From an uncultured archaeon (GTDB lineage Archaea; Iainarchaeota; Iainarchaeia; Iainarchaeales; Iainarchaeaceae): a stretch of 32,000 nt of DNA. Within the stretch, counting starts at the first letter, position 1, and every line of letters begins with the position of its first letter. The stretch spans positions 6,796 through 38,795 of the forward strand of contig CAZNZM010000010.1 in assembly GCA_964577555.1 (NCBI GenBank). Direction: 5' to 3'. Made by a program: the position numbers and the translations under genes. Shown here one piece after another: positions 1 to 31,600 of the stretch. Under the pieces are notes generated by a model, which did not search any database, was not told the origin of the DNA, and worked only from the letters and a program-made list of their open reading frames with translations.

Positions 1-2200
1 TTACATCAATTTGCTCAGCCATTCCGGTGGTTTCAGCATCTCTGCCCTCGTGTTGAGATTTTCTTGGCCTAATAGCCATGACAAAAGCCCTGCTTGTTTC
101 TTCTCGCCTGTCGCCTGTCAAAGCCACGCCAACAGGCAAAGTTTTAATGAAATTCGGGGCTCTGTATTTTCTTGGAATTATCGTAGGAGTTCTTTTGAAA
201 ACAGCTTTTATGTCATCGTCAAATATCAATTTATGAGTAATTATTATGTCTAATTGACTTAGAACTTTTGTATTTATTGCGGAAGGCTGTTGCGTTGCAA
301 AGACAACCGAAAGTCCGGGCCTTCTTCCTTGTTTTACATACTCAATGAGCCCTTGAGTAGCCGCGGTTATTTCATTTCCGCTTGGTATAAGGGTATGTGC
401 TTCATCTATGAATAGCCAAGTCGGGGGGATTTCAAGCTCCAAGAGTTCATTCATGCTTAAAGACTTGAATTTGTTGGCTGCTTCTTTTCTTGTTGATATT
501 TTTCTTGCAGCAAGCAGTCTTCTTGAAAGTATTCCAATAACAAGAGCAGTTACGTTGTCTTCCAAGAATGAAGTATCCAATATTGTTAATTGTCCTTCTC
601 TGGATAGTTCTCCAAGTGCCGTGCCCTTTTCGTGGAAAATACCCCAACTCTTTGCAGCTTCAAATCTGCTTACAATTGCTCTTATTGAATCAGGTTTGTA
701 TCCTTTGTCCTTGCTATTAAGTTCGGAATCTGTTTCAAGGCACTCAATAAGGTCATCCAAAGAATAATTAGCACCTTTTGGCTGGACTTTTACATTTCCT
801 TCTATTTTTTTGTATCCTTTTTCCACTTTTTTCAAAACCTTGTCAAGCAAAAGCCCAGAAACCGAAAACCTATCAACTCCAAAAGTCAAAGCCCAATCTT
901 CGCTTGTAAGCAATGAAGGCTTTATTGAAAATCCAGCGTCATAAGTTGATTTTGGCACTTGCCCTTTCATTCCTTCAGGTATAAAAACTTTGACATTGTT
1001 CAAACCTTTGGCATCCAAACCCCATTCTTTAAGCTTTTCAATCTCTTTTTGGTCTTTATTTGGAAACCTCATAGACCAAAAAACACCGATTGGATCAACT
1101 ACTATAATACCTACATTTTTGTTTTTTTCCGCTAGCTCTTCAGCTATTACACCCAAAACGTATGATTTTCCAGAACCCCTTGCGCCGCAAACAAATACCA
1201 CGTGTGGATTAAGAGAGTCAAGATAAACATCCCAATCTTCAAATTCTTTTTCTTTCACTTTCCCAACATGCAACCCGCCTTCAAATTTATAATTTGCAAA
1301 AACACTGGCTTTTCTGCCAATAAAAACCGCTTTTTTTTCGTTGTCTGAAAGAAAAGAAAGTTTTGTCTCTTCCTGCAAAACTTCTTCAGGTTGTACGTTA
1401 GTCGCGGATTTGTCAGCTTTTTCCAAAATCACTTTTTTTATTTCTTCCTTGCTGGGCGCAACGTATTTTTTTTCCTCGCGAGAATAATGGTCTACATCAA
1501 AATCAAATTCTTCATCATCCCAATCTTCAGGGCTTTTTTCATCTTCGTTTTCATCAAAATCTGGATAATCCTCTTCATCAGCAATTTCATCGTCATTGTC
1601 TTCGATTGTTTCATCTTCTCTAGGCGTTGTTTTGTTTTTTTCTTCTTGCATTTGATTTTTTTTGTGTTGATTGTTTTGTTTCGTTTCGTTTTCTTTTGTT
1701 GTTTTTTCGCTTTTCTTGTCTTTGCTAGGTTCTGCTAATTCTTTTTCAACAATTGTTTTGTAATTGTCTTTTTCCTCTTCTTCTTGTGCTTGGTTTTGTT
1801 GATTTATTGTTTGGTTGTTTTCTTCTTGTGTTTGCTTTTGTTCTTCTGTTTTGTTTTTTTCCGCAGCATGTTCAACTTTTTTTGTATTGTTTGATTCGCT
1901 CTTTTGTTTTTTTTTCTTTTTTTCTTCAACCCATTCTTCCGCACCATATTCCTCCAAATATTCTTCCTCTTCTTCGCTGTCTGAAAAATCCATCCATTCG
2001 CTTTTCATTGTTTTTTCAGCTTCTTTTTCTTCATAGTCTTCTGGCATTATCTCCTTTTCATTATTGTCAATAGCTTGGCGCAAAGATTCAACTTTTGATT
2101 GCTTTTCGTTGTCTTTTAGCATTTCCTCAAAAATATCAACGGTGTTTTTATCGTCCTTTTCAGGTTTGTTTTTATGGTTTTTTTCATATTCTTCGTTCAT
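1..2200 (-). CDS. HerA/FtsK-superfamily (DUF87-type) ATPase, C-terminus cut by the left window edge, with a long low-complexity N-terminal extension
   Basis: Absent from the ORF track because it runs off the edge. I translated the minus strand by hand from the ATG at 2200-2198 and checked triplets from 2200 down to about 1200 for in-frame stops; none found. A complete minus ORF would have been listed if a stop existed further on. Walker A VFVCGARGSGKSYVLG (about 1150-1200), VVDPIGVFW, Walker B WLFIDEAHTLIP (about 395-420), VVFATQQPSAI. The first ~250 codons are E/K/D/N/Q low complexity. Confidence 0.8.
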   Translation of the reverse strand, partial: MNEEYEKNHKNKPEKDDKNTVDIFEEMLKDNEKQSKVESLRQAIDNNEKEIMPEDYEEKEAEKTMKSEWMDFSDSEEEEEYLEEYGAEEWVEEKKKKKQKSESNNTKKVEHAAEKNKTEEQKQTQEENNQTINQQNQAQEEEEKDNYKTIVEKELAEPSKDKKSEKTTKENETKQNNQHKKNQMQEEKNKTTPREDETIEDNDDEIADEEDYPDFDENEDEKSPEDWDDEEFDFDVDHYSREEKKYVAPSKEEIKKVILEKADKSATNVQPEEVLQEETKLSFLSDNEKKAVFIGRKASVFANYKFEGGLHVGKVKEKEFEDWDVYLDSLNPHVVFVCGARGSGKSYVLGVIAEELAEKNKNVGIIVVDPIGVFWSMRFPNKDQKEIEKLKEWGLDAKGLNNVKVFIPEGMKGQVPKSTYDAGFSIKPSLLTSEDWALTFGVDRFSVSGLLLDKVLKKVEKGYKKIEGNVKVQPKGANYSLDDLIECLETDSELNSKDKGYKPDSIRAIVSRFEAAKSWGIFHEKGTALGELSREGQLTILDTSFLEDNVTALVIGILSRRLLAARKISTRKEAANKFKSLSMNELLELEIPPTWLFIDEAHTLIPSGNEITAATQGLIEYVKQGRRPGLSVVFATQQPSAINTKVLSQLDIIITHKLIFDDDIKAVFKRTPTIIPRKYRAPNFIKTLPVGVALTGDRREETSRAFVMAIRPRKSQHEGRDAETTGMAEQIDV

Positions 2201-2333
2201 ATTAAAACCAAATAAATAATATGCATGGATAATAAAATTATTCCTATGCAAAACATCTAAAGAACCATTGTTTTTTTGTATTCTGCTTTTTCAACACAAA
2301 CATTAATTAATAAATCGCATATTTTTTTTCTTC

Positions 2334-5925: not shown

Positions 5926-7518
5926 TTATAAATCAAACGGCACTATGCCTTGTTTGACGTATTTCTCTACAATTTCTTGGGTACAATCAGTGTCAGTATT
6001 GTACCAAGAATTAGGATCAAGTTTATATGTGCAAACTCTTGGATCGCATTTTTTGTCATCGTTAATGCAGGTGAGTGCTACTTTGACATTTTGTTGGCAT
6101 TCTTTGACGAATAACGAATGTTGAATTGATAAGCAATACTTGTCATCTTTCATTGCCACTGCATAGCGGTTATAGCATTGTTCAGTGCCACTATATTTCA
6201 ATGATCTCATTTCTTTTCTTTGAACTTTGTCGCAAACTTCTGGGACTTTTGCGTCAAGCGCGATTTTTGCATAACAATCCACGTATGCTGAATCTCTTTG
6301 GATTTTTTCGCATTTTCTTGAATCTTTGGTATCAAATGCAATATCGCTAATGCATTTTTCAAACAGTGATTGGTTTGTCCTGCTTATGCCGATGCACAAA
6401 TCTTCGTTCTTGATTTTTTTGGATGTTTCGAATATGCATTTATCTTTAAGATCTGTGTTTCCATCTATTTTTAAGCATCTTTCAATTGAATTGAAATCGG
6501 AAGCATATGCGTAATAACATTCGTTTCTTATTTTTAATTCATTTATTAATGGACAAGTTGATTCGCCATACAAGTTGGTTGCAATATATTTTATACACGA
6601 ATTTTTTAATTCATATTTCAAGTTATAACACGCTTTTACGTCTCCTCTTTTGGAAGCATACCATGCGCTGCAATAATCAAATGCATTTTCGTCTTTTACT
6701 ATGCTGCAAGAAAAATTTGTGTCTGGAACATTTGATGCGTTTTTGAAGCACTCTGCACTCAAAGCTTTGTCAACAAAGTGGTTACATTTTTCCCCATTAT
6801 TTGCCATGTTTATTTGTTTTAGGCAATCGTCTCTTGCATTTACTCCGACTATTTTATAAGTATCGCTGACTTTAAGGCAAATATCTGGGTCGTTTGTACT
6901 TGCCGCAATTCCTTTATAACATTGGTCTCTGGTTTTAGGCTCAAAAATATTTTTACAAGTATCAAATGTGCCTATTCCGTTGTAGCAATCATCTTTTTTG
7001 GCTACATCTTCTATATATTTACAAATTTTGTTGTTTTTAAGTGACTTTCCCACTGAATTATAACAATCGTCTTTGAGATATGTGTCTATGATTTTTATGC
7101 AGACGTTGTAATCAGCCATTGCAACTCCTGCCTCAAAAAAGCATCTTGACTTGAATTCTTCCGACACCAAAGTGCATGGAAATTCGGATTTGTTGGAAGT
7201 TGCGGTGTTAATAAGGCAAATTTCAGCATCAAGAGGCGGGCCAGCATTGCATTTTTCTATGCTACGAACAACTTCTACAGGCACGCCAGGGTATTTATCC
7301 AAATTTATGTCGATTATTTGCTGTTTTGCATCTTTGTTTTCGTCTTCTTTGGGTTTATTAAAATCTATTTGCTTGTTAGTGTCAATATTTTTATTTTGGT
7401 CAATTTCTTTATTTTTATCCAAATTTGGCGGGTTGTCATGTTGTTTGGTTTTTAAACAGCCAAATAATACAATAGATACGCAAAGTATTGCACAAAAAAT
7501 CAATATTTTTTTCTTCAT
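5926..7518 (-). CDS. secreted/lipid-anchored cysteine-rich tandem-repeat protein (hypothetical)
   Basis: 530-aa ORF. N-terminal signal peptide MKKKILIFCAILCVSIVLFGC with a lipobox-like LFGC, then an N/K/D/Q linker with NK-x-ID repeats. The body carries about 34 Cys (hand count) in recurring [KR]-D-x-C-[YFL] ... C-x-x-I units. TATA-like ATATTTAAATATA on the minus strand about 30-40 nt upstream of the ATG. Confidence 0.75.
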   Translation of the reverse strand: MKKKILIFCAILCVSIVLFGCLKTKQHDNPPNLDKNKEIDQNKNIDTNKQIDFNKPKEDENKDAKQQIIDINLDKYPGVPVEVVRSIEKCNAGPPLDAEICLINTATSNKSEFPCTLVSEEFKSRCFFEAGVAMADYNVCIKIIDTYLKDDCYNSVGKSLKNNKICKYIEDVAKKDDCYNGIGTFDTCKNIFEPKTRDQCYKGIAASTNDPDICLKVSDTYKIVGVNARDDCLKQINMANNGEKCNHFVDKALSAECFKNASNVPDTNFSCSIVKDENAFDYCSAWYASKRGDVKACYNLKYELKNSCIKYIATNLYGESTCPLINELKIRNECYYAYASDFNSIERCLKIDGNTDLKDKCIFETSKKIKNEDLCIGISRTNQSLFEKCISDIAFDTKDSRKCEKIQRDSAYVDCYAKIALDAKVPEVCDKVQRKEMRSLKYSGTEQCYNRYAVAMKDDKYCLSIQHSLFVKECQQNVKVALTCINDDKKCDPRVCTYKLDPNSWYNTDTDCTQEIVEKYVKQGIVPFDL

Positions 7519-12250: not shown

Positions 12251-12266
12251 TTTAAATTTAGTATTT

Positions 12267-12545
12267 GTGGGCTAGTTCGGAGAGGTAGCGGCTCTCTGTT
12301 GCCGGCAACCCGCTTCAGCCGGGAACGAAGCCACTGAAGAGGCATTAACCATATATTGATGCCTTGCCAGTACTGTGAACTTCTGCTCTTAAAGACTGGC
12401 TGTTTGGGCCAACCCCGCTAGGCCTGGAAGGGAGCAACGGTAACTCATTCAGTCGGTGCTTTAAGGTAAACGGAAGCGAGGAGAGGTTAAGGGTAAACGT
12501 CTTTATGTGGTTGCTGTCCATTTGGTGGCGCGCCCACACTCTTGC
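12267..12545 (+). ncRNA. signal recognition particle RNA (archaeal 7S/SRP RNA)
   Basis: Contains the universally conserved helix-8 core aaccccgctaGGCCTGGAAGGGAGCAACGGtaac (12411-12444), close to the M. jannaschii and E. coli SRP RNA cores as I recall them. 5' gtgggc (12267-12272) can pair with 3' gcccac (12532-12537) as helix 1. The region is GC-rich in an AT-rich genome. Exact ends are uncertain by about 10 nt. Confidence 0.85.
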
Positions 12546-12589
12546 AAAAATTATAAAAAAAATACATTTCATTTATACATTTCATTTTT

Positions 12590-13261
12590 TTTTACTTGGT
12601 TTTTTTTGTAAGTTTTTTTTGTCTTGTTTTTTCGAGCCGTTTTTTGTCATTTTTTTGAATTCTTTTTTTTTTAATTATTTTTTTTTGCAAGTCATTTTTT
12701 TTTCAGTTGTTTTTTTTTGTGAATTTTTTTTTATTTTGTTTTAATTGTTTTGTTTTTGTTTTGGCTGGTTGTTTTTTTTTGTTTCTTTTTTTTGAGTTGT
12801 TTTTTTTAGATGTTTTTTTTTCGAGCCGTTTTTTGTCATTTTTTTGAATTCTTTTTTTTGCGAGCCAATTTTTTTTGTTTTGTTAGTCAAGTTTTGTTTT
12901 TTTTACGAGTCTTTTTTTGATAATTTTTTTTATTTTTTGATACTTGTTTTTTTTGGTGAGCCACTTTTTTGCCATTTTTCTTTTTTTTGAATTCTTTTTT
13001 TTGCGAGCCAATTTTTTTTGTGAATTTGTTTTTTTTTATTTTGTTTTAATTATTTTTTTGTTTTTTTGAGGTTTGTTTTTTTGTCGGCTATTTTTTTTAT
13101 TTTTTTTGCTTATTTTCAAGTCAATTTATTTTTTTTAATTGTTTTTTTTGGCAAGCCATTTTTCGTTTTTTTGCTTGGCCAAGTTTTTTTGTCTTGTTTT
13201 TGCGAGACAATTTTTTTTGTCATTTTTTTTGAATTTTATTTATTTTTTTATGATTTGAATT
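12590..13261 (+). repeat. oligo(T)-punctuated mosaic repeat island B
   Basis: About 670 bp of T6-T10 runs separated by recurring words. Internal duplications: cgagccgttttttgtcatttttttgaattc at 12633 and 12822; gaattcttttttttgcgagccaattttttttg at 12846 and 12989; gtgaattt...attttgttttaatt at 12719 and 13021. The track lists no minus-strand ORF of 60 aa or more inside it. Confidence 0.8.
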
Positions 13262-13723
13262 TTATTTTTTTCTTCGGTATTGTTTTTTTATTTTTCCAGA
13301 CAATTTGCGTGATTTATTTTGCTTTTTTATGACATTTTTTTCTTTTCTTTTTTTGCTTGTTTTTTTGCCTTTATTTTTTTCACTCTTTCCAACAACCCTG
13401 TTTTTCGGTTTTTTCCACGCTTCAAGCGCAGCATCAATTTTTTTTCTTTGTTCGTTTCTTCTTTTTTCTCTTTCATCAAGCTTTGCGATCAACGAATTAT
13501 ATTTTCTGTGAACTTCTTCGCTGTGTTTTAATGCATTTTTTAAAGAAAGCTCCAAATGCCTTTCTTCCCTCTCTTTATGCAAACCATGAAAAACCCTGTG
13601 TAAAAAACCCAAAGCAACAGAATTATCCGCTTTTGTCTTTCTATATTTGGCTCTTTCTGAATGATGTTTGCTTAAACTTAAATATTTCCTAAATTTAATA
13701 TAATGCTTTTCGTGTTTTTCCAT
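13262..13723 (-). CDS. hypothetical basic coiled-coil protein with Lys-rich C-terminal tail
   Basis: 153-aa ORF, His/Lys/Arg/Glu rich (HKEREERHLELSLKNALKHSEEVHRKYNSLIAKLDEREKRRNEQRKK). The C-terminal 45 aa are mostly K. It lies 29 nt downstream of the 336-aa gene on the same strand. No family recognised. Confidence 0.55.
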   Translation of the reverse strand: MEKHEKHYIKFRKYLSLSKHHSERAKYRKTKADNSVALGFLHRVFHGLHKEREERHLELSLKNALKHSEEVHRKYNSLIAKLDEREKRRNEQRKKIDAALEAWKKPKNRVVGKSEKNKGKKTSKKRKEKNVIKKQNKSRKLSGKIKKQYRRKK

Positions 13724-14955: not shown

Positions 14956-15711
14956 CTTTTTTATTTGTTTCTGAATCCAATTTTTTTGTCTTTTGGCTTG
15001 GTTATTCTTGGAGCCTGTTTATTTTATTTTTTTTTTGATTTTTTTGTTTTTTTTGTTTTTTTTGTCAAGTTGTTTTTTTTTATTTTTTTTATTTTGGTTT
15101 TGTTTTTTTTGTGAGCCATTTTTTTTGTGGTTTTTTTTGGTTTTTTTTGTGGGATGATTTTTTTTGTCATTATTTTTTTTTGTTTTTTTTGTGAGCCAAT
15201 TTTGTTTTTTTTTGTTTTTTTTGTCAAGTTGTTTTTTTTTAGACTTTTTTTTTATTTTTTTTTAATTATTTTTTTTAAATTGATTTTGTTTTTTTTTGTT
15301 TTATTTTATCATTTTTTTTGAATTATTTTTTTTCTTGGTTTTTTTGTTTTTTTTGGTATTGCTAGCCATTTTTTTGTCATTATTTTTTGTGAGCCATTTT
15401 TTGTTATTTTTTTTGTGATTTTATTTTTTTTATTTAAATTGTTTTGTCTTTTTTTGTGGCTTGTTTTTTTGATTTTTGTTTTTTTTGGCGAGCCGTTTTT
15501 TTTGTGGGGCAATTTTTTTTGTTATTTTTTTTGTGGACTTGTTTTATTTTTTTGTTTTTGTTGGCTTGTTTTTTTGGAGAATTTTTTTGGCAAGCCGTTT
15601 CGGACTTATTTTTTTTGCTTTGTTTTTTGCTTGTATTTTTTTCAGCATTTTTTTGAATTTGTTTGTTTTTCATTTTTTTGTTTGGCCTTTTTTTATGGTT
15701 ATTTTTTAATT
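14956..15711 (+). repeat. oligo(T)-punctuated mosaic repeat island C
   Basis: About 755 bp of the same architecture. Recurring words include gtgagcca (15111, 15191, 15389), gtcaagttg (15064, 15224), gtcattatttt (15166, 15376), ggcgagccg (15487) and gcaagccg (15590). Bounded by the tRNA-Asn 3' end and the stop codon of the 276-aa gene. Confidence 0.8.
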
Positions 15712-17710: not shown

Positions 17711-18217
17711 TTGGATAGAGATATAGATATAATTTACAATTTATATCGCTGCCTTATACCTGAATTTACCAAGAGTCATGCTTTAATTTATCGCTTGCTT
17801 TGGCGGATTGAACCTTTAAGCGGTGATAAAATTTCAAAGGAAACAGGCATTTGCAGGGCAAAAACTTTTGCAATTCTCAAGCAATTAGTGATTCTCGGTT
17901 TGGTGAAAAAAACAAGTTTCAAGCCGATTGGTTACTTTGCAAGAGACCCTGTAGGTGCCTATTCTTCTTTGCTAAAAAAAGTCTTGCCTAAACTTGAAGC
18001 AGGAAAAACAAAGATCAAAGAACTTGTACAGAATTCTTCCAGCCTTAGCGGAGAAGTTTATTTAATAAAACTTGATGGCGGGCAACAAACAATAATAAGT
18101 AAAGAAACCCGTGAATCTATCACTGATAGAAAAGCTTTGGAAGAAATCAGGGCTGCTATTGATAGAAAAATATTTGGCTCAAACCCGCGCGAAAAGAAAT
18201 GGGTTATTTACAGGTAA
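17711..18217 (+). CDS. TrmB/MarR-like winged-helix transcriptional regulator
   Basis: 168 aa. HALIYRLLWRIEPLSGDKISKETGICRAKTFAILKQLVILGLVKK fits the TrmB-type N-terminal HTH pattern. TTG start preceded by tggggg about 5 nt upstream. Confidence 0.6.
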   Translation: MDRDIDIIYNLYRCLIPEFTKSHALIYRLLWRIEPLSGDKISKETGICRAKTFAILKQLVILGLVKKTSFKPIGYFARDPVGAYSSLLKKVLPKLEAGKTKIKELVQNSSSLSGEVYLIKLDGGQQTIISKETRESITDRKALEEIRAAIDRKIFGSNPREKKWVIYR

Positions 18218-18386
18218 TCTTGATTTTTTTTGTTTAGCCGAGTTTTTTTGAATCATTTTTGTTTCTTCCGCGTGTTTTTTTTACATGTTTTTGTGATTGT
18301 TTTTTTGTAAGTTGTTTTCTTATTTTGTAATTTGCGAGCCAAGTTTTTTGGACACTTATTTTTTTATTAGTTATAATAATTTTTTT
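18218..18386 (+). repeat. oligo(T)-punctuated repeat island D (short)
   Basis: Same vocabulary (tttgcgagccaagttttttgg at about 18341-18361; tgtttagccgagtttttttg) between the convergent stop codons of the TrmB-like and VirB4-like genes. Confidence 0.6.
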
Positions 18387-20087
18387 TCAGCTTGGCTTCG
18401 TATTTACTAAGTTAAGTTCTTTTTCCGAGGCTATTACATTTAATGGAATATGGTCATTCATTGCGATGAGTATTCCTTCTCCTGGTTGGGCATTGAGCAG
18501 AATGTTTTGTTCCGAAGGATTGAGCATAAATTTTTCAGCTATTTGGTCAATTGCCCCGGCTTCTTGGCGTCCGAAAAATTTCCACGCGGTGTTTGAGATT
18601 ATTGTATTTCCTGCATTTGTTGATAAAAGGTCTTGCGCTTCTTGTGTTATAATAATTATTCCCATATTGAATTTTCTTGAAGTTTTTACTAGTTCAAAAA
18701 TGCGATTTGCATGTTCCGCATATTTTAGCAAAGACCATGCTTCGTCAACAACAAGAATTTTTTTTCCTTTTTCAGAGCGCATTTTTCCATGGATATACTC
18801 CATAATGAGAAACATTATTGCTGGTTTAAGCGCTTCGGGCATTTCAGATATGTTAAAACAGACTATTTTTTTATCAGAGAATTGTGCAGTGTGTTTGTCC
18901 ATAAAAGAAAAAGAGCCATTGACAAAAATATTAAGCCTGCTTTCAAGTATTGAAAACGTACGTTTTTCATATTTTGCGGCTTTCTTCAATTCTTTTGATA
19001 TTTCAAAAAATAGATCGCTTATTAAAGGCGGTTGTCTTTTCCAACTTTCAGGGTTATTGTGAAAAATTCCTTTGTCACTATAAATTTTTTGTATGGCTTT
19101 GTCGAGAATTGATTTTTGTTCTTCGTTCAAATTTCCTAAAAGTATTCCGAAAAAATCTATTAATGAAAGAACCTTTTCGCCAAAGTCGATTCCGGCCATA
19201 TCAAAAGGATTTATTGCCTTTCCGCTTTTTGCACTTATTTCAACTACTTCCCCACCATATTTTGAAGTCAGTGCAGAGTATTCGCCTTGCGGATCAATTA
19301 TTATTACTTTGATTCCGATAAATTGGCTTCTTAATATTAAAAGCTTTGCCAATACGCTTTTTCCCCCTCCTGAAGTTCCAAGAATAAGTCCATTATAATT
19401 GGCTAAACTGAATGGGTTTATTATTATGGGAATTTTATTAATCGAGTTTGAGCCGAATAAAATGCCTTCCTCGTCAATATTCAAAAAAGAAGTCGTAAAA
19501 GGAAAGCAGGCAGCCAATGCTGAAGAAGTTATATTTCTGTTGATTTTTAGCAAATCTTTTTGTATTGGAAGGCACGATTTTACAGCTTCATACATTCTCA
19601 TAAACGGTATTTTTGGCACTATCATTATTGAATTCATTTCAGCGCATACTTTTTTTGATGCTATTTCAAGCGATTCCTTGTCATTCGCACGACAATTTAC
19701 ATATAATGACATGTTGAACAGTTTTTCCTCGCCTTTTTGCAGCATTTCCAAAACATTCATTGTATCTGCACGCTGTATTCTAAGAGAAGGGTTTACAATT
19801 CCTTTTATTTCAGCAGCGGCAAGATCCGATTCTTGTTTCACAAGTTCTGCATTCAGGCTTGTAAGAACCGAATCAATTTCCATTGGCGCACAATGAATGC
19901 TTATGTCGAAATTGCCTTCACTTGAAACTATTGTATCAAGCCAGCCTTCTTTTATTTCTCTCGGATAACCTACTGCCATGACCGGTCTGTTAAATTCATT
20001 TCCTAAAACCATCCAACCAGGTTCGTTTTTTAGATATGAATGTGTAAAAAGACTTTTTATGTTCTCCATATAAATCACTGATTGCAT
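18387..20087 (-). CDS. VirB4/TrbE/PrgJ-family type IV secretion (conjugation-like) ATPase, core portion
   Basis: 566 aa. Walker A LGTSGGGKSVLAKLL, IIDPQGEY, Walker B KKILVVDEAWSLL, IIIITQEAQDLL. The upstream segment AVGYPREIKEGWLDTIV...ISIHCAP is typical of the VirB4 middle region. Confidence 0.85.
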   Translation of the reverse strand: MQSVIYMENIKSLFTHSYLKNEPGWMVLGNEFNRPVMAVGYPREIKEGWLDTIVSSEGNFDISIHCAPMEIDSVLTSLNAELVKQESDLAAAEIKGIVNPSLRIQRADTMNVLEMLQKGEEKLFNMSLYVNCRANDKESLEIASKKVCAEMNSIMIVPKIPFMRMYEAVKSCLPIQKDLLKINRNITSSALAACFPFTTSFLNIDEEGILFGSNSINKIPIIINPFSLANYNGLILGTSGGGKSVLAKLLILRSQFIGIKVIIIDPQGEYSALTSKYGGEVVEISAKSGKAINPFDMAGIDFGEKVLSLIDFFGILLGNLNEEQKSILDKAIQKIYSDKGIFHNNPESWKRQPPLISDLFFEISKELKKAAKYEKRTFSILESRLNIFVNGSFSFMDKHTAQFSDKKIVCFNISEMPEALKPAIMFLIMEYIHGKMRSEKGKKILVVDEAWSLLKYAEHANRIFELVKTSRKFNMGIIIITQEAQDLLSTNAGNTIISNTAWKFFGRQEAGAIDQIAEKFMLNPSEQNILLNAQPGEGILIAMNDHIPLNVIASEKELNLVNTKPS

Positions 20088-20095
20088 CCAATTTT

Positions 20096-20938
20096 TTATG
20101 ATTTTAAAGATGAGGAAAGAAAAGTAATTTTTCTCGGCTTTTCGAATTTTGAATTTAAATTGTTTCCGGCAATTGCAAGAAAAAGTTTGGCAATTTCGTT
20201 TTCGTCAAGTCTTTTGGCACTTAAACCGCCTTTTTTGAGTTTTGTGATGCAAAGAGAACTTCTTGCTTCCAGCAAACTTTCATCAAGGCTATTCTCCGTT
20301 GGATTGTCTTCTCCAACCACTATGAAAAAACGCCTATTTCTGACTGAATTTTTCCTATTGTAATTTTCGATAAAATTTCTAAATTCAAAAAAATAATCTG
20401 AGATTTTCTTATTTCCTTGCAAAGATGCGCATTTTGATGTTTTTTCAAGGTATTCAAAAAGCGATAATTCAGTTGTTCTGACAAATATTTGTATTGGAAA
20501 GTCAAGGGAGTTAAGAAAGTCTCTATAAGCAACTATCACTGATTCTTGTTGCTTTTGTGAAAGTATTTTGAAATTTATTGGAAAAACTTCTATAATTGCT
20601 TTTTTTGAACCATCATCCAAAATTAATTTGTTGTCTTCTATTTTTTTTATTCCCGTAAATTTTTCAGATTCTTTGTCAAAAAAACCTGATTCTTTTTTTG
20701 ATAAAACAAATGACAGGAAATTAATGGAGTGTCTTGAAAAATCCAAAAACGCAAATCCGAATCCAGCAAAAGCAAGCAATATGAGCGCAGTTATTTTGAT
20801 TTCAATGCTTAAATTTGTTTTAAGGAAAAAAATCAAGCCTATTAAAATAAAAATGCCTAACCAAAAGCATTGTCTTGCTGAAAGATTGAATATTATTTTT
20901 TCTTCATATTTTAGGTTTTTTGGTATTTCATAAGGCAT
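20096..20938 (-). CDS. PrgI/VirB3-like membrane protein fused to a VirB4 N-terminal-domain-like segment
   Basis: 280 aa. N-terminus MPYEIPKNLKYEEKIIFNLSARQCFWLGIFILIGLIFFL plus a second TM matches the PrgI/VirB3 pattern (polar lead-in, KI-F-L-x-RQ, two TM helices). The C-terminal part (LILDDGSKKAIIEVFPINFKILSQKQQESVIVAYRDFLNSLDFPIQIFV) resembles the start of VirB4. GAGGT ribosome binding site; 8-nt gap to the ATPase gene. Confidence 0.65.
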   Translation of the reverse strand: MPYEIPKNLKYEEKIIFNLSARQCFWLGIFILIGLIFFLKTNLSIEIKITALILLAFAGFGFAFLDFSRHSINFLSFVLSKKESGFFDKESEKFTGIKKIEDNKLILDDGSKKAIIEVFPINFKILSQKQQESVIVAYRDFLNSLDFPIQIFVRTTELSLFEYLEKTSKCASLQGNKKISDYFFEFRNFIENYNRKNSVRNRRFFIVVGEDNPTENSLDESLLEARSSLCITKLKKGGLSAKRLDENEIAKLFLAIAGNNLNSKFEKPRKITFLSSSLKS

Positions 20939-20947
20939 GTTTTAACC

Positions 20948-21964
20948 TCAAAATGTCTGCTTTTTTTGGATGTTTTGTCCAGCAAATTGCTTTGCAAAGC
21001 TTCCGTTGAATATTGGAGCAATAACCAAATTGCTTGCAATTTGAATTACCGGTCTGAAAAACGCAAATGCCATTGCCGCAACATTAAATACTCCTATTGT
21101 GAAAAACGCAAATGCTGGCAAGTATTGTGATGCAGGTGTGTTTCCTAAACCTATAACCACGCCTGTTGCCGCAACGATTATTATTGAATCAAAAAATTGC
21201 AACAAAATGGCTACGCCCAATATTCCAAAAATGGCTTTTCCAAATTGTTTGAGCGGTGGTGTAAAATAACTGAAAATCCCTATTGGAAGTATTGCTGTTC
21301 CAACAAGCAAAATTATTTGCCTGAAAAAAAGTGTGAATCCTGCAAAACCCGCCGCAAAAATTAGAAATATTATTAATAAAGGGTTGCTGTTTTGCATTAC
21401 TGGAAAAATAAGTTTTTCAGGATGATTTCCAAGAACATGAGATGCAGCCAAGGTTCCTATTTCTATTAATATTTTGTATAAATCAAATGATGCAGAAATA
21501 ATAATCATTGATATTATCACTCCTTTGATTAATTCTTTGGCTTCTGCTCTTTTGGCATGGTTTTCAAATGCAATTATAAAAAATAATCCTGCGACAGACA
21601 AATTCATCAAGTAAAACAAGGAAATTAATGCTATTACCGAACTCCAAATGTTTCGCATTGGTTCAATGTCAGGCGGGGAAGCAAGCAACAAATAAAAAAG
21701 TTGAGTAAGAGGGGAACCAAATTCATTTAAAGAATTTTCAAAATAATTTTTGAACAAATCAAAGCCTTGTTGCGGGAGTTTTCCGGTAAAATCCTTGATT
21801 TGGTTGGTTGCACCGCTTATTGCATTTATAACTCCACTTATATCAATATTTATTAAGGGATTTACGATAATTGGGGTTTCATTTTTTGCAGAAAATGCTG
21901 ATTGGGAGTTGAAGAGCAGGCATAAGAAAACAATTGGAAGAAAGAACCAAAAAAATTTATCCAT
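20948..21964 (-). CDS. VirB6/TrbL-like polytopic membrane protein (by topology and context)
   Basis: 338 aa. Signal/anchor MDKFFWFFLPIVFLCLLFNSQSAFSA, a ~60-aa polar loop, then at least six hydrophobic helices. GGGAGGG ribosome binding site; 9-nt gap to the next gene. The assignment rests on topology and operon position, not on motifs. Confidence 0.55.
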   Translation of the reverse strand: MDKFFWFFLPIVFLCLLFNSQSAFSAKNETPIIVNPLINIDISGVINAISGATNQIKDFTGKLPQQGFDLFKNYFENSLNEFGSPLTQLFYLLLASPPDIEPMRNIWSSVIALISLFYLMNLSVAGLFFIIAFENHAKRAEAKELIKGVIISMIIISASFDLYKILIEIGTLAASHVLGNHPEKLIFPVMQNSNPLLIIFLIFAAGFAGFTLFFRQIILLVGTAILPIGIFSYFTPPLKQFGKAIFGILGVAILLQFFDSIIIVAATGVVIGLGNTPASQYLPAFAFFTIGVFNVAAMAFAFFRPVIQIASNLVIAPIFNGSFAKQFAGQNIQKKQTF

Positions 21965-21982
21965 AGCCTGCCCTCCCGGGTT

Positions 21983-22282
21983 TCATGGGGATGTAAGATA
22001 ATTTACAACAAGTGGAGCCACCCAAACCAGTACAAGCCCTACAATAGCGTATGACACCATTGATTTTGCATTTTCCCTTGTTTGAATGTTATTGCCAGAA
22101 AACATGTACATTGCTCCGGCGGCTGTTATCGCTATTACTCCAAGAACCGAAATTATTGCTTTCATCAAATCATAGATTTTTGTTATCGGCTCTTTGATTT
22201 TTTCCATATCACTTGTTGTTTCAGCTAAGCAAAAACCTGAAAGCAATATAGTTGCAATAAGAATTGTTGTAATAGTTTTCAT
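21983..22282 (-). CDS. VirB2/TrbC/CedA1-like pilin candidate
   Basis: 99 aa. Signal peptide MKTITTILIATILLSGFCLA|ETT, then a short amphipathic segment and two hydrophobic helices (AIISVLGVIAITAAGAMYMF and MVSYAIVGLVLVWVAPLVV) joined by the polar loop SGNNIQTRENAKS. This is the canonical conjugative-pilin hairpin. First gene of the operon, with GGAGGTG upstream. Confidence 0.6.
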   Translation of the reverse strand: MKTITTILIATILLSGFCLAETTSDMEKIKEPITKIYDLMKAIISVLGVIAITAAGAMYMFSGNNIQTRENAKSMVSYAIVGLVLVWVAPLVVNYLTSP

Positions 22283-22286
22283 ACAA

Positions 22287-22335
22287 CACCTCCGAAGTTT
22301 GTTTAATTCATCTTCCTTTTGTGTTGTATAAATAC
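22287..22335 (-). promoter_or_regulatory. promoter and ribosome binding site of the VirB-like operon
   Basis: Minus-strand gtatttatac (TATA, + coordinates 22326-22335) about 45-50 nt upstream of the ATG at 22282. GGAGGTG (22287-22293) sits 4 nt upstream of the ATG. Confidence 0.5.
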
Positions 22336-22449
22336 TTTTGGTTTTGCAAGTATAGATTTTTTGGAATTTGAATGAGTAATTTTAACTCGGCAAATCGGAT
22401 TTTTGAAATTTATGTGTTTAGAATTATTGTATAAATCGTGCTGTTTTTT

Positions 22450-22800
22450 TTATCCTATCATTTTTCCATGAAATAAACCTTGTTGTTCGTCATTTTTAAT
22501 TTTTGGGTTTTTTTGTTCGATTTTTTCTTTCAATTTTTGCACAATTTTTTTTCCTTTGGATTCGTTGATTATTGCAACGATTTCGTGTTTTGGTACAGGG
22601 GCGCCGCCGACTGCAACAGGCGAGTAGTCAACCGAAACATAATCGTTTTCCTTGATGTCTTTTGCTATCATTGGATTTACTTTGAATATTATCAGGTTGT
22701 CGTCCCACATTTCTACAAGCGCTTGGCTTGTTTGTTCTGCAAATTTTGAACCTTTTTCTTCCGGGTTAAGTATGTGAATAACTTTTCCTATGTGATACAT
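22450..22800 (-). CDS. hypothetical soluble protein
   Basis: 116-aa ORF with its own minus-strand TATA (tttataa) and AGAGGTG ribosome binding site. No TM helix and no recognisable motif. Lys-rich C-terminus. Confidence 0.6.
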   Translation of the reverse strand: MYHIGKVIHILNPEEKGSKFAEQTSQALVEMWDDNLIIFKVNPMIAKDIKENDYVSVDYSPVAVGGAPVPKHEIVAIINESKGKKIVQKLKEKIEQKNPKIKNDEQQGLFHGKMIG

Positions 22801-29291: not shown

Positions 29292-29443
29292 GCGAGGGTG
29301 GCAGAGTGGTCTAATGCGGCGGCCTGCTAACAATTTTCCTTCTCAAAATCAAATTTCATTTGTTGTATTATTTTTTTTGGAAAGGAAAAAGGCTGCGAGC
29401 CGTTACTCGAAAGGGTGCACGGGTTCGAATCCCGTCCCTCGCG
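29292..29443 (+). tRNA. tRNA-Ser (anticodon GCT) with a 68-nt intron at 37/38 (intron about 29330-29397)
   Basis: Exon 1: GCGAGGG-TG-GCA-GAGTGGTCTAA-TGC-G-GCGGC-CTGCTA. Exon 2: A-GCCGT, variable arm ACTC-GAAA-GGGT, T arm ACGGG-TTCGAAT-CCCGT, acceptor CCCTCGC, discriminator G. T-run follows. The intron boundary is ambiguous by 1 nt (A on both sides). Confidence 0.88.
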
Positions 29444-31432: not shown

Positions 31433-31600
31433 GCAGGAGTAGCGAAGCGGTCAAACGCGCCAGACTCAAGTCACATTTTTTCTTTCGTTGCACAAAAGAA
31501 AAAGACGAACCAAAAAATAAAACAACAAAAAAGCAATCATTCAGTGTGTGGGCAATCTGGTGGCTTAGTGCCTTCGGAGGTTCGAATCCTCCCTCCTGCA
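31433..31600 (+). tRNA. tRNA-Leu (anticodon CAA) with an 84-nt intron at 37/38 (intron about 31471-31554)
   Basis: Exon 1: GCAGGAG-TA-GCG-AAGCGGTCAAA-CGC-G-CCAGA-CTCAAG. Exon 2: A-TCTGG, long variable arm (TGGCTTAGTGCCTTC), T arm GGAGG-TTCGAAT-CCTCC, acceptor CTCCTGC, discriminator A. Followed by attttt. Confidence 0.88.

Follow-up and report, generated by a model that had tools for sequence, protein, structure and literature searches.

A candidate minimal conjugation-type secretion system resident in the chromosome of a DPANN archaeon

Introduction

Ultra-small, reduced-genome bacteria of the Patescibacteria carry a type IV secretion system (T4SS) made of VirB4, TrsD, PrgI, VirB6 and VirB2-like components, which is derived from the MPF-FATA lineage, is encoded in the chromosome and is mostly found without a relaxase (Quinonero-Coronel et al. 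2025, PMC12102498). The system is essential for epibiotic growth (PMC12102498, PMC12857230) and has also been treated by Wang et al. 2023 (PMC10633639). Its proposed role is to import macromolecules whose nature is not specified, and the ComEC route of DNA uptake is dispensable (PMC12102498, PMC12857230). Here we analyse a four-gene module found in a 32-kb stretch of contig CAZNZM010000010.1 (hereafter the window), whose source is probably an Iainarchaeota-related DPANN archaeon, and for which this Patescibacteria T4SS (PMC12102498) is the closest described counterpart. The module encodes a VirB2-type pilin, a VirB6-like membrane protein and a VirB3-VirB4 protein divided over two genes. Our preferred reading, to which we assign a probability of roughly 70%, is that it represents a functional, chromosomally resident, minimal conjugation-type T4SS of a DPANN archaeon, derived from the monoderm MPF-FATA lineage.

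The MPF-FATA systems of monoderm bacteria include PrgH-PrgI-PrgJ of plasmid pCF10, the CTn2/CD1110 family, and CDS13-17 of the Mycoplasma integrative and conjugative elements (ICEs). A VirB2-type pilin is normally lacking in Gram-positive T4SS. Among archaea, the Ced DNA-import system of Sulfolobales was reportedly set out by van Wolferen in 2016. The Ted system has been described only in Thermoproteales, and its components cannot be recognised as similar in sequence even to those of Ced (PMC9905601). The archaeal conjugative plasmids and ICEs (Sulfolobus pNOB8/pING, Thermococcus pT33-3 and thaumarchaeal ICEs) encode VirD4-like coupling ATPases and no recognisable pilin (PMC9905601, PMC12857230).

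The archaeal section of a December 2025 review of T4SS, in the part of that text available, covers only the Sulfolobus plasmids and pT33-3 (PMC12857230), and the nearest mention in the literature concerns giant proteins of nanohaloarchaea that contain a VirB4-like domain (PMC10266531). An annotation of the window made from its letters (the initial annotation) had called the module essentially uncharacterised in this lineage, and our literature searches likewise returned no prior description of the four-gene module in DPANN.

A Four-Gene Operon with a Split VirB3-VirB4

All four genes lie on the minus strand and follow one another in the order pilin precursor (22282..21983, 99 aa), VirB6/TrbL-like polytopic membrane protein (21964..20948, 338 aa), PrgI/VirB3-like anchor with a VirB4 N-terminal domain (20938..20096, 280 aa) and VirB4 ATPase (20087..18387, 566 aa). 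Because the gaps between them measure only 18, 9 and 8 nt, the four are taken to form one operon. A putative promoter and leader (22287..22337, minus strand), read from the sequence, comprises an A-rich stretch, a TTTATA box (22332-22327) and a Shine-Dalgarno-like GGAGGTG (22293-22287), both of the latter upstream of the pilin ATG at 22282, and further Shine-Dalgarno-like sites precede the second gene (GGGAGGG) and the third (GAGGT).

The 99-aa protein matches the Pfam families T4SS_pilin (6.6e-13; 49 bits against a cut-off of 26.6) and TrbC (3.2e-10), both above the curated cut-offs. Its hydropathy profile consists of a signal peptide at about residues 1-21 (...FCLA/ET) followed by a hydrophobic hairpin of two transmembrane (TM) segments, and pilins from 15 DPANN loci are 27-70% identical. 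In one public source this pilin is annotated as "RsiW-degrading membrane proteinase PrsW (M82 family)" and the VirB3-VirB4N protein as "hypothetical", the labels on the other components being hypothetical or DUF87; the system is therefore hidden from keyword searches.

The third and fourth genes are best understood together. Residues 5-88 of the 280-aa protein match Pfam PrgI (4.4e-12; 46.8 bits, cut-off 27) and include two N-terminal TM segments by hydropathy, and residues 116-254 match positions 27-164 of the NCBIfam CD1110 VirB4 model (E=0.0022), with a weak match to TrsD (0.013). By hhalign the protein pairs with Enterococcus PrgI at 88.6% probability and with residues 34-80 of an Enterococcus VirB4 at E=8e-4, and its orthologue in the close relative L001 carries a precomputed TraC-like label (PF26593). 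As a case in point, the naturally fused 980-aa homologue P0116 aligns over residues 1-230 with the 280-aa protein (E=7e-34) and over residues 259-802 with the 566-aa protein; because the two map onto it in order, they are together a split VirB3-VirB4. On these alignments, the 280-aa protein is a predicted PrgI/VirB3 anchor fused to the TrsD/TraC-like N-terminal domain of VirB4 (about residues 100-255). The split is usual in the clade, most homologues beginning where the 566-aa protein begins, and the fused form is typical of Woese-, Pace- and Nanoarchaeota-type loci.

The 566-aa ATPase matches positions 204-751 of the 752-position CD1110 model at 4.8e-84 (283 bits), followed by Mbov_0397 (5.7e-78, 263 bits), TraC-F (3.3e-44, 151 bits) and VirB4_CagE (1e-34, 120 bits); much lower scores were obtained with CedB (1e-15, 57.4 bits), TrbE (54 bits), TcpF (52 bits) and CedD (44.5 bits). 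The best solved relative is the C-terminal domain of Thermoanaerobacter VirB4 (PDB 4AG5, 1.2e-27, versus 1.1e-5 for TrwK), and the closest plasmid genes are VirB4 genes of Firmicutes and Actinobacteria, at 27-31% identity. By these model scores, used as a proxy for a phylogeny against CedB, TedB and Patescibacteria VirB4, the ATPase belongs with the MPF-FATA VirB4 proteins of monoderm bacteria. It reaches no NCBIfam equivalog cut-off and would therefore represent a separate deep clade.

By its hydropathy profile, the 338-aa protein starts with a signal or anchor sequence, continues with about 90 extracellular residues and then crosses the membrane in some 6-7 TM helices. It is homologous to its positional equivalents in loci L002 and L005 (BLASTP 5e-43 and 6e-41), which bear Pfam TrbL_3 labels (PF19590); these labels, like the TraC-like one, are precomputed only, and a local Pfam scan, whose model set apparently lacks both, failed to reproduce them even in the labelled proteins. 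The first two TM helices (residues 101-156) are pilin-like, and hhalign of the pilin profile against the VirB6-like family gives 95% (E=2e-8), the same relationship between pilin and channel that has been described for CedA1/CedA and VirB2/VirB6 (Beltran et al., PMC9905601). The gene stands directly ahead of the PrgI and VirB4 genes, and a comparable order occurs in an Enterococcus plasmid locus, where a weakly TrbL-like polytopic protein is encoded two genes upstream of PrgI. The profile of the family against PDB sequences returned nothing relevant, and hhalign against one Enterococcus TrbL-like protein was negative. Because of the homology to TrbL_3-labelled equivalents, the number of TM helices, the pilin-like segment and the position of the gene, we call the protein VirB6-like with moderate confidence.

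Overall, the molecular part of the initial annotation stands. The four co-oriented genes, their gaps, the TATA box and GGAGGTG agree with the coordinates and sequence, and the motifs reported for the ATPase, GTSGGGKS (237-244), IIDPQGEY and VVDEAW, are all present. Its proposal that the 99-aa protein is VirB2-like and its PrgI/VirB3-like and VirB4 assignments are upheld by the T4SS_pilin and TrbC, above-threshold PrgI, and CD1110 matches, and its VirB6-like assignment holds through the indirect evidence above. Its treatment of the last two products as separate proteins was right as to both names and incomplete, the two being halves of one VirB3-VirB4.

Comparison with Patescibacteria and Monoderm Systems

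The inventory of domains in the DPANN module (VirB4, TrsD-like, PrgI/VirB3, VirB6-like and VirB2-like pilin) is identical to that of the Patescibacteria T4SS, and the two share the MPF-FATA affinity of VirB4, a usual chromosomal location, the absence of a relaxase in most cases, and carriers that are ultra-small organisms with reduced genomes. They differ in that the DPANN carrier is an archaeon, in the single pilin gene of the window as opposed to a cluster of paralogues in Patescibacteria, and in the way the parts are joined: PrgI is fused to the TrsD-like part in the window and also to VirB4 in Woese-, Pace- and Nanoarchaeota, a VirB3-VirB4 fusion that is not found in Patescibacteria. Most DPANN VirB4s, moreover, have a nuclease-like C-terminal domain, and about 30% of the DPANN loci have a linked integrase. 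Next to the DPANN module, VirB1-, VirB8- or VirD4-like genes were not observed.

The monoderm MPF-FATA systems supply the best sequence matches to VirB4, the match to PrgI and, in the Enterococcus plasmid locus, the order polytopic protein-PrgI-VirB4; the Mycoplasma ICEs share with the window module the absence of VirB1 and VirB8. Unlike the monoderm systems, however, the window module has no coupling protein, relaxase, peptidoglycan hydrolase or VirB8-like gene, and it does have a VirB2-type pilin and a split VirB4.

A Family Spread Across DPANN Genomes

A first scan of genomes with a single VirB4 sequence as the query gave no match. Scoring of candidates yielded 589 relatives of the ATPase at E<=1e-10, nearly all of the named ones from DPANN, and an alignment-based scan of species-representative genomes yielded 484 confirmed stretches, of which the best 80 underlie the results given for the family. 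These 80 come from Iainarchaeota, Woese-, Pace- and Nanoarchaeota metagenome-assembled genomes (MAGs), with a few that look mis-binned. With custom hidden Markov models, the order pilin, optional 470-490-aa protein, VirB6-like, VirB3-VirB4N and VirB4 was the same in every locus of sufficient length, and at least 80 loci share it. No recurrent coupling-protein or relaxase-like family was found near the module in the 80 related loci, and no conserved effector-like or toxin gene adjoins it.

Typical DPANN modules are also filed under Peregrinibacteria, Bdellovibrionales and Methanosarcinales MAGs (L016, L050, L072, L080, L082, L084, L086), which is probably due to mis-binning, or possibly to DPANN contigs being co-binned with those of their hosts.

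The family has a probably mobile side. A tyrosine recombinase gene lies 0.2-4 kb upstream of the pilin gene and on the same strand in 12/40 to 15/48 of the loci with enough flank, a tRNA gene abuts the integrase in five integrase-bearing loci, and in L043 integrase, module and a closing tRNA gene together take up a compact 8 kb. The neighbourhood of relatives' modules includes orphan DPPY methyltransferases, type I restriction-modification (RM), GmrSD, MmeI-like and Fic genes, and seven MAGs contain two copies of the module. No duplicated tRNA fragment or att repeat was found in the available flanks of the six loci with both integrase and tRNA, and mobility of the integrase-linked copies is therefore likely but not proven.

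Three genes that recur near the module deserve mention. One, for an orphan DNA methyltransferase with a DPPY motif and a length of about 215 aa (Pfam N6_N4_Mtase, 5e-36), lies divergently 240-690 nt upstream of the pilin gene in L050, L058, L069, L075, L085, L088 and other Woese-, Pace- and Nanoarchaeota-type loci; orphan methyltransferases are typical of mobile elements that shield their own DNA from restriction. Seven loci (L002 6583-6876, L003 7029-7295, L018, L019, L020, L021 and L043) share a conserved protein of 85-101 aa (...GKGTRDYHYLINVPRLYVG...NNHQLVVIDLDD), whose gene is likewise divergent and lies 260-630 nt upstream of that for the pilin; five of these loci are integrase-linked and Iainarchaeota-type, and in L018 and L019 no integrase was detected. 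The protein has no Pfam match and may be a regulator of the element. The optional secreted protein between the pilin and VirB6-like genes, 420-560 aa long, is present in L007 (6454-7926), L008 (6814-8232) and about 20 other loci and absent from the window. It has weak Big_1/Invasin Ig-like matches in a local scan and a precomputed DUF8186 label in L007 only, and may be an adhesin or a pilus-tip protein.

The VirB4 C-Terminal Domain and the Question of Substrate

In 69/76 of the complete VirB4 genes, a census that includes those of the window and L001, the ATPase is followed by a C-terminal domain of about 190 aa (for example residues 560-747 of P0002, or 11642-12280 in L002). The extension consists of a small winged-helix-like unit and a PD-(D/E)xK-like domain, with E47, H51, D78, E98 and E100 invariant in the domain alignment. 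Its AlphaFold model has a pLDDT of 94.4, and the named fold matches, though weak, are mostly proteins of the restriction-endonuclease fold (VC1899, BamHI, MspJI, OkrAI, VRR-NUC, Mrr, Vsr, Can2/Cdn1 and Avs4), which makes a PD-(D/E)xK nuclease-like domain probable. A fusion of this kind could supply the DNA-processing activity that is missing from archaeal conjugation.

The VirB4 proteins of the window and of L001 stop exactly at the linker between the domains, and no remnant of the C-terminal domain was found in either. Where relatives encode it, the window has an oligo-A/oligo-T repeat spacer (18218..18386) between the convergent VirB4 and TrmB-like genes, 169 nt long as against about 930 nt of similar repeat in the equivalent spacer of L001. 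In the syntenic locus L024, VirB4 has the domain and ends 19 nt from the TrmB gene.

This difference bears directly on what the window copy might move. Among the alternatives, the one that survives best holds that the module makes an adhesion or contact pilus, or a translocator of protein or other non-DNA cargo, with which the cell attaches to a host or exploits it, DNA not being the substrate. The missing nuclease-like domain fits such a role, as does the absence of a relaxase, coupling protein or integrase nearby, and in many relatives a gene for an Ig-like surface protein of 470-490 aa (Big_1/Invasin-like, a weak match) stands between the pilin and VirB6-like genes. There is also precedent in the macromolecule import proposed for Patescibacteria with their dispensable ComEC route (PMC12102498, PMC12857230), and in the idea of VirB4-linked effector secretion in nanohaloarchaea (PMC10266531). 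We nevertheless consider this alternative unlikely: across the family the module travels with integrase, methylases, RM genes and the nuclease-like VirB4 extension, its closest characterised sequence relatives are conjugation ATPases, and no effector-like or toxin gene is conserved beside it. Since the genomic neighbours of the family and the nuclease-like extension point that way, DNA is taken as the probable ancestral substrate of the conjugation-type system that we favour.

An Apparently Resident Locus in a Family with Probably Mobile Members

Within the 32-kb window, searches found no integrase, no relaxase and no protein of the VirD4/TrwB type, and direct repeats around the module do not exceed 14 nt. 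The GC content of the module (0.30-0.35) does not differ from that of its flanks. On one side these consist of ribonucleotide reductase (RNR), a DEAD helicase and HGSNAT, and on the other of nitroreductase, tRNA-Asn, signal recognition particle (SRP) RNA, FtsZ, M50 and PAN genes, so that housekeeping genes extend for 4-8 kb or more in both directions.

Comparison of the window with L001 gives ratios of nonsynonymous to synonymous substitution (dN/dS) of 0.089 for the pilin, 0.088 for the VirB6-like protein, 0.111 for VirB3-VirB4N and 0.054 for VirB4, set against 0.02-0.12 for the flanking RNR, DEAD, FtsZ, HGSNAT and M50 genes, and the dS of the module (about 0.6) equals that of the flanking RNR, DEAD, FtsZ and M50. 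By these values, purifying selection on the four genes matches that on their housekeeping neighbours. The flanks are shared more widely. L024 has the order DEAD, module, TrmB, unk336, FtsZ (83% identity), M50 and PAN; L026 has RNR (80%), HGSNAT, DEAD and module; and in L022 the module adjoins GMP synthase and HGSNAT, all at a VirB4 identity to the window of only 54-58%. In a rough neighbour-joining tree the syntenic copies form deep, long branches and the integrase-linked Iainarchaeota-type copies a cluster of short ones, and the two kinds occur together in the MAG ERP125453_co1_517 (L022 and L017). Because mobility genes are absent, dN/dS and dS resemble those of the flanks, and flanks are shared at such low VirB4 identity, the comparison supports a vertically inherited chromosomal locus in the clade of the window.

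These results match what the initial annotation had seen in the window, namely no VirD4, relaxase, integrase or att-like repeat, and a chromosomal apparatus among core genes; the synteny check that it had suggested across related MAGs found the flanks kept in L024, L026 and L022. Its contention that this is not a conjugative element is right for the window copy and fails for the family, whose modules elsewhere are often associated with integrase, tRNA and RM genes; because of these associations in other DPANN genomes, it would be untrue to say that the family is never a mobile element.

It can still be argued that the module belongs to an integrated conjugative or mobilisable element that is active and extends past the 32 kb, where its integrase, its att sites and its genes for DNA processing would be found. 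The upstream recombinases of the related loci (12/40 to 15/48), the six integrase loci in which a tRNA gene either neighbours the integrase or closes the module at its other end, the RM and defence cargo common near the module and the seven two-copy MAGs all make this conceivable in principle. It is very unlikely for this copy, however, given housekeeping flanks on both sides that recur at 54-58% VirB4 identity, equal dS in module and flanks, no GC anomaly and no direct repeat above 14 nt; moreover, the 4 kb ahead of the pilin gene, within which relatives have their integrase, here contain a conserved 116-aa open reading frame (ORF), HGSNAT and DEAD.

Decay into a non-functional remnant of a conjugative element would account for the parts that the window copy lacks relative to most relatives (the nuclease-like VirB4 domain, the upstream integrase, the methylase or small regulator, and a DUF4145-like downstream gene) and for the repeat DNA in place of the lost domain, but four ORFs kept intact in two genomes at a dS of about 0.6 and dN/dS of 0.05-0.11, intact catalytic motifs, the promoter and Shine-Dalgarno sites, a truncation that coincides exactly with the linker between the domains, and the lack of the domain from six further complete VirB4 genes of the census make it highly improbable.

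Comparison with Archaeal DNA-Import and Conjugation Systems

Like Ced and Ted, the module looks like a domesticated chromosomal T4SS derivative with a pilin, a VirB6-like channel, a VirB4-like ATPase and no relaxase; it resembles Ced in having a pilin-like segment inside the channel protein, and Ted in that the TedC pilin likewise has a cleavable signal peptide. It differs from them in its VirB3/TrsD-like part, which is not among the components published for Ced and Ted, and in being unlinked to Ups pili, HerA/Rad50 and ParA (no ParA or Rad50 gene occurs in the window), with relatives often found on integrase-bearing elements. "Ced/Ted-like", the label given in the initial annotation, is thus to be read as an analogy of function only, Ced being set apart by model scores and Ted by description.

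True membership of the Ced or Ted families, for which the shared three-part logic on a chromosome without a relaxase, the TedC-like signal peptide and the echo of CedA1/CedA in the VirB6-like protein (PMC9905601) could be cited, deserves next to no credence when CedB scores 57 bits (cut-off 700) and CedD 44.5 bits (cut-off 600) as against 283 bits for CD1110, the pilin directly matches the bacterial T4SS_pilin and TrbC families, a PrgI/VirB3 and TrsD-like part is present, and the Rad50, HerA or ParA genes of Ted loci are not co-located.

With the archaeal conjugative plasmids and ICEs the module has in common a VirB4-based design and no recognisable relaxase, and an integrated-element lifestyle is shared only by the integrase-linked DPANN relatives. 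The window copy is set apart from them, by description, in having a clear VirB2 pilin and neither VirD4 nor integrase.

Neighbouring Genes and Sequence Features

Downstream of the operon and convergent with it lies a gene for a 168-aa TrmB-like winged-helix protein (17711..18217, plus strand; Pfam TrmB 2.5e-6), which evolves under a dN/dS of 0.076 against L001. Full-length orthologues with 34-35% identity follow the module in the unrelated contexts of L002 and L005, the syntenic L024 has one with 46% identity, and a match is present in 18/82 loci, nearly all of them Iainarchaeota-type. This recurrence suggests that the protein is likely a regulator of the operon and a fifth conserved component in Iainarchaeota-type loci.

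At the left edge, a HerA-like P-loop ATPase gene (1-2251, minus strand) runs off the window and encodes at least 750 aa, with DUF87 (7.9e-17) and HerA_C domains, a Walker A motif GARGSGKS, an N-terminus of about 300 residues of acidic and lysine-rich low complexity, and no TM segments. It gave no match to VirD4 or TrwB families, and a distant homologue occurs near the module in only one other locus. For lack of a VirD4/TrwB match, of TM segments and of recurrence near the module, it was rejected as a coupling protein or part of the system. The earlier inventory of neighbours was correct as to the core genes and had missed this ATPase. The 116-aa ORF upstream of the module (22450-22800) was rejected as a component too, its conservation being limited to the window and L001.

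Several other features of the window may be recorded. Its archaeal context is given by an archaeal SRP RNA (12265-12539) and the PAN proteasome ATPase. Arrays of T8-9 tracts about 14-16 nt apart, split by short words containing G or C (GAGCC, GCGAGCC, TTGCCAAG...), occupy 12570-13380, 14960-15700 and 18218-18386 of the window and 11684-12616 of L001, with GC content falling to 0.24-0.29 within them. Each follows a plus-strand gene (SRP RNA, tRNA-Asn and the TrmB-like gene, respectively); the arrays might act as terminators, and they change length quickly, since 169 nt in the window stands against about 930 nt in L001. Two Rfam tRNA matches (29292-29443, 152 nt; 31433-31600, 168 nt) that were not called by ARAGORN are probably intron-containing archaeal tRNAs. 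Finally, a 530-aa protein (5926-7518, minus strand) with an N-terminal lipobox-like signal (…LFGC), many Cys-containing repeats (…DxCY/…KDDCY…) and no Pfam match is probably a Cys-rich surface protein.

Proposed Mechanism and Implications

It is important to stress the points that weigh against a functional, resident conjugation-type T4SS. The window covers 32 kb of a 38.8-kb contig, and a coupling protein, a relaxase analogue or an integrase may be encoded elsewhere in the genome; the HerA-like ATPase itself lies 16 kb from the module. The 338-aa protein has no direct Pfam, NCBIfam or PDB match, the TrbL_3 label of its relatives was not reproduced by the local Pfam scan, and its AlphaFold2 model, from an alignment of 16 sequences, has a pLDDT of 47.7, too poor for a fold search. 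The fold matches of the nuclease-like domain are weak (PDB E >= 7.6e-3, TM-score 0.3-0.4). A pilus or channel is proposed from homology, a host-dependent lifestyle is assumed from the DPANN affiliation, and the link to DNA comes from relatives; because the VirB4 of the window has no nuclease-like domain, the substrate of this copy could differ.

If the conjugation-type reading is correct, and by analogy with bacterial T4SS of solved structure, the pilin precursor would be exported by Sec, cleaved and kept in the single membrane as a two-TM hairpin. A VirB4 hexamer, tethered to the membrane through the VirB3-VirB4N protein, would dock on the VirB6-like platform, and ATP hydrolysis would extract pilin and drive its polymerisation into a conjugative-type pilus or conduit that crosses the S-layer and reaches a partner cell, with the convergent TrmB-like winged-helix protein as the probable regulator of the operon. 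Since the copy in this lineage is fixed in the chromosome and has neither an integrase nor the nuclease-like domain, it was probably domesticated to serve the cell that carries it; candidate roles are the exchange or uptake of DNA, as in Ced and Ted, or of other macromolecules of a host or partner, as has been suggested for the corresponding system of Patescibacteria.

A broader reading, which we put forward as tentative and rather doubtful, is that DPANN and Patescibacteria share a minimal VirB2/VirB6/VirB3-TrsD/VirB4 conduit, through inter-domain transfer or parallel domestication, and that DPANN have it in two forms. The mobile form would be integrase-linked, with the VirB4-fused PD-(D/E)xK nuclease replacing the missing archaeal relaxase; the domesticated form, as in the window, would be fixed and nuclease-less and would acquire DNA, nucleotides or other macromolecules from a host. 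If so, the two great radiations of ultra-small, host-dependent cells would rely on the same core cell-to-cell conduit.

The module touches on two open questions of DPANN biology, namely where these archaea obtain the building blocks that they cannot make and how genes move among them, and as a widespread and compact gene set it is a candidate conduit between DPANN and host. The analysis also corrects the public annotation of the pilin (PrsW) and of the other components (hypothetical, DUF87). The family offers natural contrasts between mobile and domesticated copies, between nuclease-bearing and nuclease-less VirB4, and between split and fused VirB3-VirB4, and these could reveal how conjugation machines become domesticated and what replaces the relaxase in archaeal conjugation.

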